NCBI GenBank assembly: GCA_050251945.1
Contig: JBFWLW010000009.1
Span: 1-64,000, forward strand
Reading direction: 5' to 3'
DNA from: Deferribacterales bacterium
GTDB lineage: Bacteria; Chrysiogenota; Deferribacteres; Deferribacterales; Geovibrionaceae
Length of the DNA: 64,000 bases
Both the position numbers and the translations under genes were made by a program. Under the pieces are notes generated by a model that did not search any database, had not been told where the DNA came from, and saw only the letters and a program-made list of their open reading frames with translations. Shown piece by piece: positions 6,109-20,638 of this stretch (position 1 is the stretch's first letter; the number at the start of each line of letters is the position of its first letter).

Positions 6109-6717
6109 AATTATTTTATAAGCCCTAAAAAACAGACGGCATTATAAAAACACTGCCTTCGTTTAACTGCCTTAGAATCTAAGCCGGAAACCTATGGATA
6201 CTGTATACGGTATACGATAATTTTGAGCGTCAGAACCTTTGTGGTGCATAAATGTGCGCAAAACATGAGGAACACTGCCTTATCCTATATAACAAAGTTT
6301 TACTATGGCGTAAGCCTGAATTTTTAAATATTTTTTTAAACCACTCATTCTGAACACACGTAAATCATATTAATTATAAAATAGTATTACTAAAAAAGAT
6401 ATAACCCGCCAAATATAAGTAAAACCACTGTCAATAAGCATGTTTTTATGATTACATATTTAAAAGATATGAATTTAATAGAAAACAAAGAAAAACAAAA
6501 ACTATACTTTTGCGATTTTTGAAAACCGTTTGAATCGGTGTTTTAAAAAAAATCAACTTAGAATCGGCTATTGCATTAATTTATTTTGCATGTATTTAGA
6601 TACTAACGGTCACAAACACATATATAGACCGAACTATTCATTATTTGCATACGTTTGAAAGATTCCTATTATTGCTTACGTTTCAGATTCACTAATTTTA
6701 ACTTTTTGAGGTTTAAA

Positions 6718-7821
6718 ATGTCTGATAACACTCTGTTCAGCACAGGGCTCCACAGACGTGATTTCCTGCGTCTTACCGCAGGTCTGACCGCTCTGATGGG
6801 TCTTCCTTACGCTATGCACTCAAAGGTTGCCGAAGCGGCCACAGCGGACAACAGACCGCCCGTAATCTGGCTTCACTTTCAGGAATGTACAGGCTGTTCC
6901 GAATCCCTCATCCGTTCAGGACATCCGGATCCGGCAGCACTCATCCTCGACCTTATCTCACTTGACTACCACGAAACACTTATGATCGGTTCCGGTCACC
7001 AGGCTGAAAAATCACTTGAAGACAGCATGAAAGCAAACTGGGGCAAATACATCCTCGTTGTTGAGGGCGCGGTTCCACTTGCTGAAGACGGAATTTACTG
7101 CAAAGTTGCAGGCAAAAAAGCGGTCGACTCACTTAAAGACGCCTCAGAAGGCGCCGCCGCTGTAATCTGCATTGGTACCTGCGCTGCGTTCGGCGGTGTT
7201 CAGGCTGCAGATCCCAACCCAACACAGGCTGTTTCGGCTTCAAGCCTTGTTAAGGACAAACCCGTGATCAACATCCCCGGATGTCCTCCCAGCCCCTACA
7301 ACCTGCTTGCAACTATCCTTTACTACCTGACATTCAACAAACTGCCCAAACTCGACAAACTCGGCAGACCCGAATTTGCATACGGCAGAAGAATACACGA
7401 ACATTGCGAACGCAGACCCCACTTTGACGCGGGCAGATTCGCAGAACAGTTCGGCGACCAGGGTCACTCTGAAGGCTGGTGTCTTTTCAAACTCGGCTGC
7501 AAAGGTCCCGTTACATTTGCAAACTGCTCAGTACAGCGTTTCAACGACGTTGGCGTATGGCCTGTTTCCATGGGTCACCCCTGCATCGGCTGTACAGAAC
7601 CCGACGTTATGTTCCACACATCAATCTATGACAAAGCGCAGATCCATGAAATTACTCCGCCCGATTTCTACCCCAACGCCAACCCCGCACCCCGCGGCAA
7701 AGGTGCTGATCCGGTCACAACCGGCGTTATCGGTATGGTAGCAGGCGCCGCTATCGCAGCAAGTGCGATCATGGCGAACAAGCTGCCTAAAGGAGGGGAT
7801 GATGAAGAAGACAAGGCGTGA
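6718..7821 (+). CDS. hybO: [NiFe]-hydrogenase small subunit (Tat-exported)
   Basis: RRDFL Tat motif, ECTGC, GCPP, CLFKLGCKGP, CIGC, C-terminal TM. Likely start ATG 6718 after GAGG. Confidence 0.93.
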   Translation: MSDNTLFSTGLHRRDFLRLTAGLTALMGLPYAMHSKVAEAATADNRPPVIWLHFQECTGCSESLIRSGHPDPAALILDLISLDYHETLMIGSGHQAEKSLEDSMKANWGKYILVVEGAVPLAEDGIYCKVAGKKAVDSLKDASEGAAAVICIGTCAAFGGVQAADPNPTQAVSASSLVKDKPVINIPGCPPSPYNLLATILYYLTFNKLPKLDKLGRPEFAYGRRIHEHCERRPHFDAGRFAEQFGDQGHSEGWCLFKLGCKGPVTFANCSVQRFNDVGVWPVSMGHPCIGCTEPDVMFHTSIYDKAQIHEITPPDFYPNANPAPRGKGADPVTTGVIGMVAGAAIAASAIMANKLPKGGDDEEDKA

Positions 7822-8773
7822 TTTCCTGAAAACTGCCGCAGTAGGCGGAGCGCTGATGATTGCGCCCCTTTCTGCATCCGCGCAGCAAGAAATCAAAGCC
7901 GATGACGAAGCCGTAGGCATGTTCTATGACTCAACACTTTGCGTCGGCTGTAAGGCGTGCGTTTCAAAGTGCAAGCAGGTCAACGACATGGCGGCAGCAC
8001 CTATGCCCGGCGACAGCGACAGGGTATGGGACGCTCCCGAGGATCTTGACTACCGCACAAGAAACATCATCAAACTTTATAAAGATGAAAAAGACCCGGA
8101 AAAGCACGCATATGTAAAATACCAGTGCATGCATTGCATCAAACCTTCATGCGTTTCCGCATGTCCCGTTTCCGCAATGCAGAAAGAAAAAGGCACAGGT
8201 ATCGTTTTCTATGACAAAAACATCTGCATAGGCTGCCGTTACTGTCAGGTTGCCTGTCCGTTCAACATACCCAAATTTGAATGGCCGGAGACATTCCCTA
8301 AAATAGTAAAATGCGACCTTTGCAAATTTACCAACCTTAAACTGAAGAACATCCCCGCATGCTGCGAGGTCTGCCCGACCAACGCCGTTATCTACGGAAA
8401 ACGCAAAGACCTTCTGGCAGAAGCAAAACGCCGTCAGGCAGAAAACCCCGGAAAATATGAAAAACATATCTACGGCGAGTTTGAAGTCGGCGGAACTAAC
8501 GTTATCTACCTTGCGGGAACAGACTTCAACAATCTCGGATTCCCCGAGCTCGAAACAGAATCAGCGGCTCTTGTGTCAGAACACGTTCAGCACACGCTTT
8601 ACAAAGGCTTCATAGCCCCCGTTGCACTGTACGGTTTCCTTGCTTTCGTTGCTCTGCGCAACAGGAAATCTGCTGAAGAAGTGGCTCACGAACACGAGAC
8701 TGAGCACGAGCTTGCGATTGAAATCGAACACGAGCTTGAGAAGGAGAAAGAAGGGAAGGAGGGCAAACACTAA
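7799..8773 (+). CDS. hybA: hydrogenase-2 Fe-S (4x[4Fe-4S]) subunit
   Basis: TRRDFLK Tat motif; CVGCKAC, CMHC...C, CIGCRYCQVACP, CDLC...CCEVCP. Confidence 0.92.
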   Translation: MMKKTRRDFLKTAAVGGALMIAPLSASAQQEIKADDEAVGMFYDSTLCVGCKACVSKCKQVNDMAAAPMPGDSDRVWDAPEDLDYRTRNIIKLYKDEKDPEKHAYVKYQCMHCIKPSCVSACPVSAMQKEKGTGIVFYDKNICIGCRYCQVACPFNIPKFEWPETFPKIVKCDLCKFTNLKLKNIPACCEVCPTNAVIYGKRKDLLAEAKRRQAENPGKYEKHIYGEFEVGGTNVIYLAGTDFNNLGFPELETESAALVSEHVQHTLYKGFIAPVALYGFLAFVALRNRKSAEEVAHEHETEHELAIEIEHELEKEKEGKEGKH

Positions 8774-9984
8774 TGGCCGGACATCAAGACGAATATCAGG
8801 TACATAGGGCGAAGATCCTTACTCCTGCCTTTTATGTGCTTCTTTTCTTTACAGTTCTCGGCTTCCTGCTCATCGCATACAGATTTGTGATGGGTATCGG
8901 AGCGGTTTCAAACCTTTCAGACGGCTACCCGTGGGGTATCTGGATTGCTTATGACGTTGCGACCAGCACGGCTTTCGCGTGCGGCGGCTATGCCATGGCG
9001 CTTGTCATTTACATCATGAACAGGATGAAATATCACCCGCTTATCCGTTCGGCTCTGGTTACAAGTATGTTCGGTTACATGCTTGCCGGTATGTCCGTTA
9101 TGGTTGACGTCGGGCGTTACTGGAACGCGTACAGCTTCTTCATCCCTTCGCGCTGGCAGCCGAACTCGGTAATGTTTGAAGTTGCGGTCTGTATCATGGC
9201 ATACAACGTGGTTCTTATCATCGAAGTTCTGCCTGCGATACTTGAGCGCTTCATACATATGAAGAACGACAAGTTCCCCAAACTGAAACATTACGCTATG
9301 ATCATCTACCCCAAACTTGACAAGGTGCTGATCTTCATAGTTGTTCTCGGTATCACCCTGCCCTCTATGCACCAGTCTTCACTCGGTTCGATGCTCATCA
9401 TCGCCAAGTCTAAACTGAACCCCATATGGCACACAGAGATGCTTCCTCTGCTGTTCATCATCAACGCCCTTTACATAGGCTATTCAACAGTAATCTTTGA
9501 ATCCTTCGCTTCCTCGATGGCATTCAGAAGACCTTTTGAAAAAGAAGTACAGCAGCTTTCAAAAATAATTCCTTATGTAACAGGCATATGGCTGGCAGTT
9601 CGTTTCATCGACCTGTACGTAAGGGGTCAGCTCAGCTCAGCATTCGCCGGCGACTTCTATTCATGGATGTTCATGGCCGAAATGCTCCTGATACTCACAG
9701 GTACATACATACTGATGTGGAATCAGTACAGAAGATCCCCCAGAATGGTTTTCATCGCTGCGATGTTCCTTCTGATAGGCGGCGGCTGGTTCCGTTTCAA
9801 CGTTTACCTTATCGGATTCAAGCCTCACGGCAACTGGAGCTATTTCCCTTCACTGCCTGAGTTCTTTATCACCGTAGGTCTCGTTGCATTTGAGATACTC
9901 GGATACATGATACTCGTAAAACTGTTCCCCATCATGCCCAAACTGCACGGACAGCATGGCGCGGAAGCAGCGAAGGCTCATTAA
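8773..9984 (+). CDS. hybB: hydrogenase-2 NrfD-family membrane subunit
   Basis: NLSDGYPWGIWIAYDV, MHQSSLG; polytopic membrane protein. Confidence 0.92.
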   Translation: MAGHQDEYQVHRAKILTPAFYVLLFFTVLGFLLIAYRFVMGIGAVSNLSDGYPWGIWIAYDVATSTAFACGGYAMALVIYIMNRMKYHPLIRSALVTSMFGYMLAGMSVMVDVGRYWNAYSFFIPSRWQPNSVMFEVAVCIMAYNVVLIIEVLPAILERFIHMKNDKFPKLKHYAMIIYPKLDKVLIFIVVLGITLPSMHQSSLGSMLIIAKSKLNPIWHTEMLPLLFIINALYIGYSTVIFESFASSMAFRRPFEKEVQQLSKIIPYVTGIWLAVRFIDLYVRGQLSSAFAGDFYSWMFMAEMLLILTGTYILMWNQYRRSPRMVFIAAMFLLIGGGWFRFNVYLIGFKPHGNWSYFPSLPEFFITVGLVAFEILGYMILVKLFPIMPKLHGQHGAEAAKAH

Positions 9985-10004
9985 TTTTTTAGGAGAAAAC
10001 GAAG

Positions 10005-11687
10005 ATGTCCAATAGAATCACAATTGACCCTATCACACGAATTGAAGGACACCTCCGCATTGACTTTGAAGTGGAGGGAGGCAAGGTTTCCAAAGCATGG
10101 TCTTCCGCACAAATGTGGAGAGGTATCGAAAAAATCCTTCAGGGACGCGACCCCAGAGATGCGTGGGTTTTCGCACAGAGATTTTGCGGCGTTTGCACAA
10201 CAGTACACGCCATCAGCTCCATCCGTTCACTTGAAAACGCACTGAACGTCGACGTTCCGCTTAACGCTCAGCTCGTGCGTAACATTATCATCGCACAGCA
10301 CTCCGTTCAGGATCACATAGTTCACTTCTATCACCTGTCAGCACTTGACTGGGTTGATATTGTTTCCGCTCTTTCCGCCGACCCCAAAAAGACGGCACAG
10401 CTTGCACAGTCTATTTCAAACTGGCCCGGAAACAGCGAAACTGAATTCAGAGCCGTTAAAGAAAAACTGACTGCATTCGTACAGACAGGCAGACTCGGTA
10501 TCTTCGGCTCAGGATACTGGGGACACCCCGCAATGAAACTTCCGCCCGAAGCAAACCTTATGGCTGCCGCACACTATCTGAAAGCACTTGACTATCAGAA
10601 AAAAGCTGCCGCTGCAGTCGCTATTCTCGGCGGAAAGAACCCCCACATACAGAACCTCTGCCTCGGCGGTGTTGCCACGGCTATCAACATGGATAACGAA
10701 GCCGCTATCAACATGGAGCGTATCGCACTGCTCAGAAGCCTTATGACAGAAACAAGAGACTTCGTTAAAGAAGTTCTTTTCAACGACGTTGTGGCTATCG
10801 GTTCAATGTACAAAGACTGGTTCACATACGGACGCGGTGTGGATAACTATCTCGCAGTTCCCGAGTTCCCCCTTGACACCAAAATGACCAAATTTGACAT
10901 GTCAGGCGGTATCATCCACGGAGGAGACCTTAAAAACTTCCGCAAACTTACCAATCATACTGACGAAGCGCTCATCAAAGGCATCACTGAATCCACTGCT
11001 CACGCATGGTACAGAGACGACAAACCGAAACACCCCTTTGAAGGCGTTACAGAACCCGAATACACAGATTTCAACCCCGACGGCAAATACACATGGTGCA
11101 AGGCGCCCAGACTTGACGGCAGACCCGTTCAGGTCGGGCCGGTTGCGCAGATTCTCGCTTCCTATGCAGCAGGCGACAAAGAGGTTAAAGCCCTTGTCGA
11201 CAGCGTATGCAGCAGACTGGGCATCAGCGTTAACGCTCTTCAGTCCACTATGGGCCGCCACGTTACACGTGCAATCCGCTCCGTCATCATGGCAGAGAAA
11301 TCACTTAAATATCTCGATATGCTTATCGAAAACTACGCCAAAGGCGACACAGTGTACGCAAACCACACTGAAATGCCCAAAGGCGAATACCAAGGCGTTG
11401 GTTTCCACGAAGCACCCAGAGGCACACTGTCACACTGGATGGTTATCGAGGATAAAAAACTTAAAAACTATCAGGCTGTTGTTCCCTCAACATGGAACGC
11501 AGGGCCCAGAGACGAAAACGGCGCTGCCGGTCCTTATGAAGCAAGTATCAAAGGAAACCCCGTTGCAGACGCACACAAACCTCTGGAAGTTATCAGAACC
11601 GTTCACTCTTTCGACCCCTGTATAGCTTGCGCTGTGCACTCTATCGACCCCGAGGGCAAAGAGATCACAAACGTGAGGGTTAGATAA
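10005..11687 (+). CDS. hybC: [NiFe]-hydrogenase large subunit (group 1, Hyb-type)
   Basis: RIEGH, L1 motif QRFCGVC, L2 motif DPCIACAVH followed by a cleavable C-terminal tail. Confidence 0.95.
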   Translation: MSNRITIDPITRIEGHLRIDFEVEGGKVSKAWSSAQMWRGIEKILQGRDPRDAWVFAQRFCGVCTTVHAISSIRSLENALNVDVPLNAQLVRNIIIAQHSVQDHIVHFYHLSALDWVDIVSALSADPKKTAQLAQSISNWPGNSETEFRAVKEKLTAFVQTGRLGIFGSGYWGHPAMKLPPEANLMAAAHYLKALDYQKKAAAAVAILGGKNPHIQNLCLGGVATAINMDNEAAINMERIALLRSLMTETRDFVKEVLFNDVVAIGSMYKDWFTYGRGVDNYLAVPEFPLDTKMTKFDMSGGIIHGGDLKNFRKLTNHTDEALIKGITESTAHAWYRDDKPKHPFEGVTEPEYTDFNPDGKYTWCKAPRLDGRPVQVGPVAQILASYAAGDKEVKALVDSVCSRLGISVNALQSTMGRHVTRAIRSVIMAEKSLKYLDMLIENYAKGDTVYANHTEMPKGEYQGVGFHEAPRGTLSHWMVIEDKKLKNYQAVVPSTWNAGPRDENGAAGPYEASIKGNPVADAHKPLEVIRTVHSFDPCIACAVHSIDPEGKEITNVRVR

Positions 11688-11688
11688 T

Positions 11689-12177
11689 ATGCAGGTGGTG
11701 GTCTTCGGAGCAGGAAATATGCTCCTCAGCGACGAAGGGCTTGGCGTTCACCTTGTAAAAAGGATGAATGAGAAATATGAACCTTCAGATGATGTCGAGT
11801 TCTATGACGGCGGGACTATGGGTATTCTTGCCACCCATAAACTTGAGGAGACCGCCCACGTCATTATCGTAGACAGCCTCGACGCAAAGGGTGTTCCCGG
11901 TGAACTGAGGGTCTACAAAAAAGAAGATATCATGCTGGAAAAAATTCCCGCAAAGATGTCTCCTCACCAGATAGGACTTCAGGAAGTGCTTACCCTCAGC
12001 GAGCTGAGAGAAAAAGCCCCCGAAACGATAACATTTTACGGTGTTATCCCCGCAAGCCTCGACAGCTCGGTGGAACTAAGCCCCGAAGTTGAGCAGAGAC
12101 TTGACGAAATAGAAGCTCTTATCATTGACGAACTTAAAAGGATGGATATTGTTCTGTCGCCCGTTATAGCGGCATAA
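11689..12177 (+). CDS. hybD: hydrogenase maturation endopeptidase
   Basis: GNMLLSDEGLG, DGGT, SPHQ motifs. Confidence 0.93.
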   Translation: MQVVVFGAGNMLLSDEGLGVHLVKRMNEKYEPSDDVEFYDGGTMGILATHKLEETAHVIIVDSLDAKGVPGELRVYKKEDIMLEKIPAKMSPHQIGLQEVLTLSELREKAPETITFYGVIPASLDSSVELSPEVEQRLDEIEALIIDELKRMDIVLSPVIAA

Positions 12178-12231: not shown

Positions 12232-12355
12232 TTTTTCAGGTTATTTACTTCGTTCTGCAGCGTCAGATTTCGCTCACCCGCATCACATACATATTTGTAT
12301 GCTCACGCCCGACTCACTCAATCTTCCTTGCACAACTCGCATCTAACCTGAAAAA
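12232..12355. repeat. palindromic repeat family 2, copy 1
   Basis: Outer inverted repeat TTTTTCAGGTTA/TAACCTGAAAAA. Shares CGTTCTGCnnCGTCAG and CTTCCTTGCAnAACTCGCATCTAA with 18111-18231. Confidence 0.7.
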
Positions 12356-17729: not shown

Positions 17730-17786
17730 TGGCGAAAAACAGCCAACATAAAATCAACGAGGAGACTTATTGGCAGATTTTCGCCA
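17730..17786. promoter_or_regulatory. pair of palindromic enhancer (UAS) sites, TGGC-N8-GCCA
   Basis: TGGCGAAAAACAGCCA (17730-17745) and TGGCAGATTTTCGCCA (17771-17786), 41 bp apart and 100-155 bp upstream of the sigma54 promoter. A third copy lies at 19708. Confidence 0.7.
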
Positions 17787-17883
17787 CATAAATAACGGGA
17801 TAATAATACGCATTTACCGATAAATAAAAAAATATCCGTTACTTTCCAGACATTTACGAATGTAAAACAAAAATCTATCAATT

Positions 17884-17900
17884 TTGGCACATGCATTGCT
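17884..17900 (+). promoter_or_regulatory. sigma54 (-24/-12) promoter
   Basis: TTGGCACATGCATTGCT matches TGGCAC-N5-TTGCW, with GG at 17886-87 and GC at 17898-99. Confidence 0.8.
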
Positions 17901-17910
17901 CTAATAAACA

Positions 17911-18100
17911 CTGAAACGTACGCAATAGGTATCAGATTTAAACATGGGTTCGGCGTAAGCCGAGGGGGAGTGTCTTTTCGGCGGGCGGATTGCCCGCTGA
18001 CAGGACAGAAAGAAGCAAATAGCCACAAATAAATAGATGCATAGGCGGTATCAACCGCTTTTCGCCCTGCTGAGGTCTCCAATACCGGCAGGGCTTTTTT
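17911..18100 (+). ncRNA. candidate sigma54-dependent small regulatory RNA (~190 nt)
   Basis: Lies between the sigma54 promoter and a U-tailed terminator; three internal hairpins; no credible ORF. Confidence 0.65.
18064..18100 (+). terminator. intrinsic terminator of the candidate sRNA
   Basis: GCCCTGCTG...CGGCAGGGC followed by TTTTTT. Confidence 0.8.
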
Positions 18101-18110
18101 ATCTCCTCTC

Positions 18111-18231
18111 TTTGTGCTTATATGCTGCGTTCTGCTTCGTCAGTTTCCGCTCGCTCGCAACGTGTACATTCGAGTACACTTTTGCTCGTCTCACAGAAGC
18201 CTTCCTTGCATAACTCGCATCTAAACACAAA
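18111..18231. repeat. palindromic repeat family 2, copy 2
   Basis: Outer inverted repeat TTTGTGnTTA/TAAACACAAA; core shared with 12232-12355. Confidence 0.7.
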
Positions 18232-18271
18232 TTACTTATAAACTGTCAGAATCCCGCATAGTGGTTTTGTA

Positions 18272-19636
18272 TCACACCAGTCCGTATTTTTCCAGCTTAT
18301 ACCTTAAAGTACCTCTGGGAATATTCAGAAGTTTGGAGGTGCGCAGAACGTTTGCGCCTGTAAGAACAAGAGCTTCCGAAAGAAGCTGTTTTTCGATGCT
18401 TTCCATGGCGGCTTCAAAATCCATACCTTCGTGAGGGATATGCAAATTATTCTGAACCCCGTTCTTAGGCTTTTCACCCGAAATCTCGCGGGGCAGCATG
18501 TCGGGAGTGATTATCTCCTTGCTGTACATAATACAGATGCGTTCCACAATGTTCTTCATTTCGCGGATATTGCCCGGCCACTGATATGCCTTGAAAAGCT
18601 CCAGAGCCTCTTTTGAAACCTCTTTAATATTTTTTTTAAACTCAGAGTTGTAACGTTTTATGAAATGATCCAGAAGTGGCGCTATATCCTCCGTGCGTTC
18701 CCGCAGCGGCGGCAGAGACAGAGGGAACACGTTGAGTCTGTAGAAAAGATCCTCTCTGAACTCCTTATCGTTTATAGCTGTGTGCAGGTTTTTATTCGTT
18801 GCCGCGATTATACGTACGTCTATATCAATGTTGCGCGTACTGCCCAGCCTGCGTATCTTTCTCTCTTCCAGAACCCGCAGGAACTTCACCTGAAGGTTCA
18901 TGTCCATTTCGCCTATTTCATCCAGAAATACGGTTCCTCCGGCGGCATCCTCCAGAAGACCTATCTTTCTGGTCTTAGCGTCGGTGAACGCGCCTTTTTC
19001 ATGTCCGAAAAGCTCGGACTCCAGCAGATTAAACGGGAGTGACCCGCAGTTTATATCCACGAACGGCTTATCCTTGCGCGGCGAAAGGTTGTGTATCGCT
19101 CTGGATACCACCTCCTTTCCCGTACCGCTTTCGCCGGTAATAAGCACTGTCGCGGTTTCGTGCTTCGCCACTTCGCGTATCTTCATGAAAACGTCGGTCA
19201 TAGCGGGGCTGACACCGACCACTTCCGGCAGAACGGAGCCGTCACGTTTATATGATTTGAGTTCCCGCTTGAGGCTTCTGGTCTCAAGGGCAAGCCGCAC
19301 TATGAGGTGAAGCGCATCAGCTTTGAACGGTTTTTTGATATAGTCGTAGGCGCCCATCTTAAGCGCCTCCACGGCACTTTCAACGGTTCCGTAACCTGTT
19401 ATGATTATTACAAGAATTTCTGGATCGACCTCTTTCATCTCCCTCAGGATATCAAGTCCGCTGTCCCTGCCGAGATTAAGGTCGAGAAGCACAAGATCTA
19501 TATCCCCTTCTGTGAGCATATGAATGGATTCATGCCTGTTCTGTGCGACAGCAACGTCATATCCTTTAAGCGTGAGAGTTCTTTCGAGGTTTTCGCGAAT
19601 AAATATTTCATCATCGACAACGAGTATTTTTTCCAT
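18272..19636 (-). CDS. NtrC-family sigma54-dependent response regulator (REC-AAA+-HTH)
   Basis: Receiver domain; GESGTGKE, ESELFGHEKGAFTDA, FLDEIGE; C-terminal Fis-type HTH. Confidence 0.95.
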   Translation of the reverse strand: MEKILVVDDEIFIRENLERTLTLKGYDVAVAQNRHESIHMLTEGDIDLVLLDLNLGRDSGLDILREMKEVDPEILVIIITGYGTVESAVEALKMGAYDYIKKPFKADALHLIVRLALETRSLKRELKSYKRDGSVLPEVVGVSPAMTDVFMKIREVAKHETATVLITGESGTGKEVVSRAIHNLSPRKDKPFVDINCGSLPFNLLESELFGHEKGAFTDAKTRKIGLLEDAAGGTVFLDEIGEMDMNLQVKFLRVLEERKIRRLGSTRNIDIDVRIIAATNKNLHTAINDKEFREDLFYRLNVFPLSLPPLRERTEDIAPLLDHFIKRYNSEFKKNIKEVSKEALELFKAYQWPGNIREMKNIVERICIMYSKEIITPDMLPREISGEKPKNGVQNNLHIPHEGMDFEAAMESIEKQLLSEALVLTGANVLRTSKLLNIPRGTLRYKLEKYGLV

Positions 19637-19707
19637 ATCCGATCCATGCAAATAAATGTGGGTGAAAATCAGTATAGGATATTATGGGAATATAGCAAGG
19701 AAAAACA

Positions 19708-19723
19708 TGGCGGTTTTTCGCCA
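19708..19723. promoter_or_regulatory. third TGGC-N8-GCCA site, upstream of the activator gene
   Basis: TGGCGGTTTTTCGCCA, next to a possible minus-strand sigma70 promoter TTGCTA-N16-TATACT (19698-19671). Confidence 0.65.
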
Positions 19724-19726
19724 TAT

Positions 19727-20638
19727 CTATAAATTGAAAGTGATGCAGAAGTCTGTACCCTTCCCGGGTTCGCTCTCAACAGCGATTTCGCCTCCGTGCC
19801 TGCGGACAATATCACGAACGACGGAAAGTCCTATACCTGTTCCGCCTTTTTTATCGGTAAAGAACGGTTCAAAGATCATATGTTGCTTTTCCGTGGATAT
19901 TCCTGAACCTGTGTCCTTAAAGTGAATATTGATACGGCTGTCCACCACCTTTGCAGTCACTGTCAGATTTCCGCCACTTTCCATTGCCTGAACAGCGTTG
20001 ATGACAAGATTATGAAAAGCCTGACGCAGTTTACTGCCGTCGGCGAGTATGTGCGGGATATCCGGTTCGATATCGGTCTGGACGTTAACTCTGTGGATAA
20101 CACACAGCTTGCGGTTAAGCATCAGAACTTCGGAAAGCACAGCCGCAATATTCTCTTCGCTCATGGCGCGGATATCGCCGCCGGAATATGTCAGCACGTC
20201 GGTAAGCATCCTTTCCAGCCGCTCAAATTCTGATATCGCCATACGGAGAAGGTGTCTTTCGTTCTCTGCACAGCTCATTCTGTCGTGGATATCGTCAAGA
20301 AGAACTTCTATACCTGTCAGAGGATTACGCATTTCATGCGCCAGAGAGGGCATTATTTCGCCAAGTGACAAAAGCTTAGACGCTCTTTCACGTTCGCTTA
20401 CATTCTCAAGGATGATCAGCCTGTAGCCGCTGTCTCCGACCTTTTCCGATGCAACGGAATAATCTGAAGCGATGGAGTTTTTCACGATGCTGATAACGGT
20501 TCCGTCACCGGCATCTTTAAGTTTTGAGGCGGCGTCACTCTCGTTTAAAAGCAGTTTGCCGACTTCATCCGCATAGACAGTGTCTCCGTTCTTATCAATA
20601 ATAATGACCGCTCTGTAAAACTTAAGAAATCTGCTCAT
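19727..20638 (-). CDS. soluble sensor histidine kinase (NtrB-like)
   Basis: LAHEMRNPL H-box, NAVQAM, DTGSG, GTGIGL; no TM segment. Confidence 0.92.
   Translation of the reverse strand: MSRFLKFYRAVIIIDKNGDTVYADEVGKLLLNESDAASKLKDAGDGTVISIVKNSIASDYSVASEKVGDSGYRLIILENVSERERASKLLSLGEIMPSLAHEMRNPLTGIEVLLDDIHDRMSCAENERHLLRMAISEFERLERMLTDVLTYSGGDIRAMSEENIAAVLSEVLMLNRKLCVIHRVNVQTDIEPDIPHILADGSKLRQAFHNLVINAVQAMESGGNLTVTAKVVDSRINIHFKDTGSGISTEKQHMIFEPFFTDKKGGTGIGLSVVRDIVRRHGGEIAVESEPGKGTDFCITFNL

Follow-up and report, generated by a model that had tools for sequence, protein, structure and literature searches.

A predicted sigma54-driven small RNA in the place of a transporter gene in Deferribacterales, with a hydrogenase leader as its candidate target

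The window analysed here is the whole stretch of 64,000 nucleotides from a Deferribacterales bacterium, and the locus of interest within it (table 1) comprises a sigma54 promoter followed by about 190 nt of structured sequence, a convergent gene for a sigma54 response regulator and the gene for the cognate histidine kinase, directly upstream of which lies a chemotaxis-receptor gene. The original prediction had described the promoter, the hairpins, the A-rich linker, the terminator and the convergent activator, and all of these were found where it had placed them. The kinase is the best match in this genome for the kinases of 807-820 aa of relatives, two of which carry dCache_1; its shortness here recurs in G006 (309 aa) and G003 (216 aa), while G009 retains 807 aa.

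Counting does not by itself single out the promoter, as strict copies of its motif number 17 in the genome vs 8 and 11 in two shuffles, which is not beyond chance; we judge the site real because it is conserved. Three of the five strict activator boxes in the genome lie at the RNA locus, and just one of the 17 strict sigma54 sites, the RNA promoter, has boxes within 300 nt. The box before the activator gene is also present at the same position in G003, G006, G013 and G015, and behind activator orthologues a box of this kind stands ahead of the sigma54 promoter, be the output the RNA, a DASS transporter or a TRAP transporter. On these comparative grounds the neighbouring activator very likely drives the RNA, through boxes that travel with its target promoter, as the proposed wiring of the two had implied. 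What has to be given up is the quorum-type role suggested by the likeness to LuxO and Qrr: the activator scores 364 against the LuxO model, the cutoff of which is 800, and the activator of relatives controls a DASS or TRAP transporter. An Atlas search returned generic sigma54 activators. Two other sigma54 sites were noticed in the same survey, one at G000:C7:108182 (-), after which come a short ORF, probably with a signal peptide, and a terminator, the other at G000:C2:106484 (+), followed by a leader of ~310 nt, possibly structured or a riboswitch, and an 802-aa gene.

Table 1. Features of the RNA locus, of the predicted target and of the second RNA class (positions in the window unless a locus is named)
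Feature	Position	Strand	Remarks
Activator box 1, TGGC-N8-GCCA, putative enhancer	17730..17745		12/16 invariant in 5 genomes
Activator box 2	17771..17786		14/16 invariant in 5 genomes
Sigma54 -24/-12 promoter, TTGGCAC-N5-TTGCT	17884..17900	+	precedes all 8 RNA copies; putative +1 about 17911
sRNA gene, predicted	17911..18100	+	~190 nt; 185-200 nt across 8 genomes
5' single-stranded segment	17911..17933	+	predicted seed for hydrogenase leader; limited to five-genome class
Small hairpin TCGGC-GTAA-GCCGA	17950..17963	+	class-specific
G-rich run GGGGGAG	17964..17970	+	7/8 copies
Long stem	17971..18007	+	pairing of the inner 7 pairs complete (100%) in 7 copies; loop differs among copies
A-rich linker, possible Hfq site	18008..18034	+	length and sequence vary; drawn to 18036 in the original prediction
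Invariant core AGATGCATA	18035..18043	+	8/8 copies unchanged
GCGG/CCGC hairpin	18043..18060	+	paired in 98% of cells; both sides changed in one pair
Intrinsic terminator, C/U-rich loop	18064..18100	+	5 pairs with two-sided changes
Sigma54 response regulator (REC-AAA-HTH), putatively DctD-like activator	18272..19633	-	Pfam REC, Sigma54_activat, HTH_8
Third activator box, before activator gene	19708..19723		putative autoregulation
Cognate histidine kinase	19727..20638	-	303 aa; HisKA + HATPase alone, dCache/HAMP sensor part missing
Predicted 5' leader of hydrogenase operon	6606..6717	+	putative start; 5' hairpin of differing sequence in all 8 holders
Leader motif TTATTTGCATA	6641..6651	+	8/8 RNA holders vs 0/7 non-holders examined
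Predicted target site, tandem second copy of motif region	6661..6686	+	5/5 genomes with RNA 5' end vs 0/10 others, the five being close kin, so that the co-occurrence of site and RNA counts as one event
Hydrogenase-2-type [NiFe] operon, predicted target	6718..12177	+	11 kb from RNA
Second RNA class	L098:4587-4701, L099:1913-2016, L110:4587-4798		same slot behind related activators
Second RNA class	L124:4196-4313, L127:4548-4629, L106:2487-2569		same slot behind related activators

The sequence behind the promoter is strongly conserved in the five close genomes, where 178/202 columns of the RNA (88%) and 15/17 of the promoter are invariant, against 18/98 in the spacer and 29/138 downstream (about 20%); at 17914-17945 the invariance is complete (32/32 columns). 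Folding of the 192-nt stretch gave z = -3.82, equalled by 0/200 shuffles, and six base pairs, five of them in the terminator, have changed on both sides (0/500 shuffles). A search of the window with Rfam 15 gave 0 gathering-level matches, and the RNAs of G003 and G009 gave none at E up to 5, in agreement with the view that the RNA lies outside known families. On the evidence of its sequence we regard an activator-driven sRNA gene as highly probable at this place. A 349-nt contig covers 17894-18123, but starts inside the promoter and comes from one of four runs that consist of contigs only and are flagged as probably DNA, and it thus carries no weight for or against transcription. One might still see in the locus a non-functional remnant, that is, a promoter and a terminator left after a transporter gene had moved off, since the 5' halves differ among three classes of copies and, in those genomes of this genus that were seen, the kinase is cut short; yet such a remnant would account neither for the contrast in invariance and the two-sided changes just given, nor for the promoter and boxes being retained when the RNA gene was inverted relative to the activator, and we consider it very improbable.

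Nor does the RNA look like a message. No ORF is common to the eight copies. A small peptide, alone or in dual function with the RNA, could begin at a GTG behind the G-rich run, since in 4/8 copies this run is followed by a GTG opening 13-25 codons; however, G005 has no ORF of at least 8 codons in that frame, G001 and G003 would use another start, G009 has no ORF and the stops are not conserved, all of which leaves the peptide scarcely credible. The titration of CsrA that had been proposed fares no better: although csrA is present in this genome and one looped GGA occurs here, each copy has just 2-4 GGA, ANGGA is found in none of the eight, loop GGA in 2/8, and all 4 GGA of G009 are mostly paired, so that an RNA of the CsrB/RsmY type is the least probable of the readings weighed in this work. 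The GGATT loop on the long stem is thus real here and not a conserved trait. Two other details share this fate in part. The small hairpin with its GNRA loop is present in the window, its stem being unchanged and its loop variable in the five genomes (other than GNRA in G004), and it is missing in G001, G003 and G009; CUCC in the terminator loop, also present, recurs in 5/8 copies only, all of one near-identical class. Three features had escaped the original prediction: the core AGAUGCAUA, unchanged in every one of the 8 copies and the only family-wide invariant, the invariant 5' end, and the match of this 5' end to a hydrogenase leader. The A-rich linker before the core has a mean unpaired probability of 0.57-0.81 over the 8 copies.

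A DNA search of 61 relatives returned four matches of 89-94% identity, three of which start at the promoter, and two of 72-74%; the eighth copy was found behind the activator orthologue of G009, a member of a different genus. The holders amount to 8/16 genomes of the family and 8/68 in the phylum, one weak match having been rejected, according to covariance models that were trained on the 8 copies, so that these searches show a lack of further copies in the genomes covered and not an independent detection. The copies fall into three classes, in which the 5' halves differ and a 3' module is common (the A-rich linker, AGAUGCAUA, the GCGG hairpin and the terminator): the five close genomes share one class, and diverged copies occur in G001, G003 and G009. 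Among rejected candidates, the match of model R1 in G013 lies inside a coding sequence, presumably purM-like, and that of model R3 in G057 lacks promoter and core hairpin; of 19 pattern matches in the genome collection, 13 came from unrelated taxa, scored at most 16.6 bits and were also discarded. Past the terminator, at 18122-18232 of the window, there is a REP-like repeat; related copies in the genome number 6, including that at 12248-12346 of the window; in some relatives other sequence takes its place.

How did an RNA come to stand behind this activator? Activator orthologues occur in 15/61 genomes, all within the same family, and are followed by boxes, promoter and RNA in 8 of them and by boxes, promoter and a DASS-like gene in the other 7 (the family was confirmed on two proteins). 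Relative to the activator, the RNA lies in tandem in G001, G003 and G009, and the five-genome class has it inverted. A sigma54 site is found at 11/11 DASS copies of non-holders vs 0/6 of holders, and the displaced transporter persists elsewhere without promoter in 6/8 holders. In a tree that is a quick version, midpoint-rooted and without a clade test, built on 64 rows of 95 loci after length and identity filters, all 8 activators linked to the RNA group in a single clade (SH-aLRT 100) amid those linked to DASS. From this pattern we infer that the RNA replaced the transporter once. The RNA may even descend from the transporter gene: when 12 chosen loci were searched with the 3'-module model, its best two matches fell at DASS 3' ends (rough E values of 0.011 and 0.025), while 5 other DASS ends were missed and local alignment of the RNA to DASS is weak; the evidence for such an origin is suggestive only.

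The ancestral arrangement would be reminiscent of DctB/DctD, which control dicarboxylate transport, as in relatives a DASS or TRAP transporter is preceded by a dCache kinase and a sigma54 activator; unlike that system, the output here is an RNA and the kinase is without its dCache part. In Geobacter, dcuB is sigma54-dependent (PMC2725144). For the swap itself the closest parallel is OxyS of Enterobacteriaceae, which is an sRNA in place of a protein gene beside a regulator, with the regulator sites kept and with homology to the 3' end of the parent gene (PMC8825220). Here, too, the RNA stands where relatives have a protein gene, next to a regulator whose binding sites are retained; the differences are that its sequence link to the parent gene is only suggestive, that it is under sigma54 two-component control and that the displaced transporter survives in 6/8 holders. 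Three peculiarities of DASS regions deserve mention: a tandem DASS duplication with a sigma54 site per copy (L049:9636-13689, in 4 genomes of genus g3), a tRNA-like gene after a degenerate partial copy, near phage-like genes downstream of DASS and possibly an integration site (L055:13230-13480), and, behind DASS in G007, ~2 kb that lack long ORFs but contain a number of long repeated elements (L050:10480-12500).

The predicted target lies on the same contig, in an operon whose HybA and cytochrome b subunits score above NCBIfam cutoffs; the matches of its small and large subunits to Hyd-2 models stay under the equivalog cutoffs. When four RNA segments were first scanned against 2,723 predicted start regions, the hydrogenase leader came third for the 5' segment. 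With the 5' 25 nt it reached -25.2 kcal/mol and rank 1/2,722, with a hybrid-only margin of 0.9 kcal, a rank obtained post hoc, after the segment had been shortened to 21-25 nt and the leaders, for which heuristic gene starts were used, had been lengthened to 112 nt. When accessibility was included, which was done for the top 80 only, this leader was first by 2.9 kcal (-13.0 vs -10.1 for the next), and 0/150 shuffled RNAs reached its score. The pairing is kept in 5/5 genomes of the class (-13.0, -13.1, -12.4, -11.5 and -7.5), with a C-to-T change in G002 and G005 that retains a G-U pair, whereas four rival top matches lose strength in the majority of those relatives in which they were traceable; RNA segment and leader site are both retained while adjacent sequence drifts. 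The leaders of paralogous hydrogenases have the motif TTATTTGCATA in 0/13 cases. A further copy of this motif occurs at G000:C2:130031 (+), 136 nt ahead of a small gene.

Outside the five-genome class the complementarity fades: it is moderate in G001 (linker and G-run), reduced to an occluded G-run in G003 and missing in G009, and with accessibility no favourable leader pairing is predicted in G003 (-1.6) and G009 (+0.8). The G-run against the C/U-rich stretch of the leader ranks 43 in G001 and 14 in G003, and 1534 here, where it does not pair. The best duplex of linker and core is anchored on the leader motif in 7/8 cognate pairs; on the leaders of this genome, however, it ranks 453 with the RNA of the window, 46 with that of G001 and about 2,300 with those of G003 and G009, and some non-cognate pairs outscore cognate ones. 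An ancestral pairing in the linker register was rejected as statistically unsupported. Taking this evidence together, we lean towards the hydrogenase leader as a true target of the RNA, with a chance slightly better than even.

A competing possibility is that the RNA acts by base pairing chiefly on other mRNAs, through its core, its G-run or its terminator loop, and that the hydrogenase match is the relic of a local inverted duplication or of a shared DNA operator. The core, sole invariant of the family, forms just a 5-bp helix with the leader; the counterpart of the RNA in Desulfuromonadales, described below, keeps an anti-Shine-Dalgarno loop; and activator and hydrogenase genes adjoin in non-holders too. 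The single mismatched position is different in each of the three motif copies, as in a degenerate DNA site. On the other side, the core has no standout target among the translation-start regions of this genome, the DASS leaders show no conserved pairing with the RNA (exact core complements are present in five relatives), and the joint retention of 5' segment and leader site amid drift would go unexplained; we regard this alternative as unlikely, if worth keeping in mind. Less probable again is a decoy in the manner of CrcZ or GlmY, in which the A-rich linker and UGCAUA would titrate Hfq, a tandem Hfq-like protein, or an sRNA or protein that binds the hydrogenase leader. It draws on the sequence TGCATA, common to core and leader motif in the same sense in 8/8 holders, and on a second protein with two Hfq domains in 16/16 genomes of the family. 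Sponges usually repeat their site, however, and this RNA has one A-rich tract and one copy of the core, while the invariance and the complementarity of its 5' end would go unaccounted for. The Hfq-like protein in question (G000:C3:272074-272598, ~174 aa, two tandem domains) exists besides canonical hfq and is divergent from a run of genes that we take to be dnaN-recF-gyrB-gyrA-like.

The reading that we favour, with a probability slightly over one half, is that of a trans-acting and probably Hfq-assisted sRNA pairing with the hydrogenase-2-type leader; hfq itself is present in 16/16 genomes of the family, and the RNA has a terminator with a U tail and a conserved seed predicted to be single-stranded. 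The RNA would have captured the promoter and enhancer through which a two-component system ancestrally turned on a DASS transporter of organic acids. Once phosphorylated, the activator would bind the paired boxes and fire the sigma54 promoter, and the RNA would then pair with the hydrogenase leader, in this genome via its 5' 23 nt, aided by the linker and the AUGCA core. Such pairing would most probably loosen a stem over the ribosome site and the start codon: with the target site blocked, the ribosome footprint is computed to open at a cost lower by 0.5-4.7 kcal in 5/5 genomes, although an equal or larger gain comes from blocking any window closer to the start codon, so that the direction indicated is weak. 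Activation of the hydrogenase by pairing is therefore only weakly favoured, its chance lying a little over half and that of repression or decay a little under. The circuit would make sense in that hydrogenase-2 feeds the respiration of fumarate. GlmZ, DsrA and ArcZ are activators that open leaders, and the predicted pairing resembles theirs in lying 30-60 nt upstream of the start codon and in engaging an arm of the occluding stem; they differ in having no sequence relation to this RNA, for which activation is only weakly favoured.

Among RNAs linked to sigma54 activators, qrr1 adjoins luxO. Qrr1-4 of Vibrio are base-pairing sRNAs driven by the sigma54 activator LuxO (PMC13501541); the RNA described here differs in being single copy, without Rfam match and with an activator below the LuxO cutoff. 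Pxr of Myxococcus xanthus is an sRNA of 108 nt with several stem-loops, which lies downstream of the sigma54-dependent response regulator Nla19, has its own sigma54 promoter and gates development (PMC5568312). Its layout is shared, in tandem as in G001, G003 and G009, whereas our RNA has no Rfam match and measures ~190 nt. CrcZ, linked to CbrB (PMC5113210), has an A-rich stretch in common with it. Unlike CrcZ and the CsrB/RsmY sponges, the present RNA has by eye one A-rich tract and no repeated A-rich or GGA motifs. Such repeated motifs characterize those sponges. The RNA would work most like an Hfq-type leader-pairing sRNA and would have arisen like OxyS, and it belongs to neither the Pxr/Nla19 nor the Qrr/LuxO group. 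A literature search that reached few subscription papers gave no regulatory RNA for Seleniivibrio and none naming Deferribacter or these genera; within the same reach it gave no sRNA acting on a hydrogenase-2 leader, one 2026 review being without mention of hydrogenase.

A comparable situation is met in Desulfuromonadales. Metagenome loci with related activators, 44 of 80 of which were covered, have as outputs 3 DASS genes, 7 TRAP genes (one of each confirmed by family) and, in 7 cases (six distinct), a non-coding stretch, the remainder having no such output or being incomplete. The stretch measures 80-210 nt and ends in a covarying terminator with a C/U-rich loop, mostly CCUCCU, this anti-Shine-Dalgarno loop being well conserved, and makes up the second RNA class of table 1; the three loci that were checked fall in Desulfuromonadales. 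Rfam has no family at threshold for these RNAs, with sub-threshold anti-hemB matches on the terminators only. At L104 one DASS gene ends in the same hairpin as the Desulfuromonadales RNA. Cross-searches did not establish homology of the two RNA classes, since model R2 missed the window and model R3 missed the free-standing Desulfuromonadales RNAs; R2 gave raw matches in family genomes (E 4e-4 to 0.04) and in L133.

The most far-reaching scenario would combine these elements: an organic-acid-sensing sigma54 system exchanged its transporter for an sRNA born from the 3' end of the transporter gene, separately in Deferribacterales and in Desulfuromonadales, and in Seleniivibrio this RNA co-evolved with the hydrogenase leader, through a duplicated site and a new 5' seed, to switch on an H2-uptake hydrogenase post-transcriptionally. 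As a whole we hold this scenario only tentatively, for it is rather unlikely to be right in every part. If true, it would show new sRNAs arising by the OxyS route in a second phylum, with intermediate states visible among living genomes, and would let the birth of an sRNA be traced together with that of its seed and target, in a circuit that links the use of electron donors to organic-acid sensing in anaerobes; it would also offer one precise, testable pairing and an RNA layer on H2 oxidation in anaerobic respirers. In some of the metagenome loci HypF follows the activator (confirmed for two), the adjacent HypF alone providing the linkage to hydrogenase there. At L111, L129 and L138 what we take to be a c-di-GMP-I riboswitch-like sequence stands before a response-regulator gene, behind the activator.
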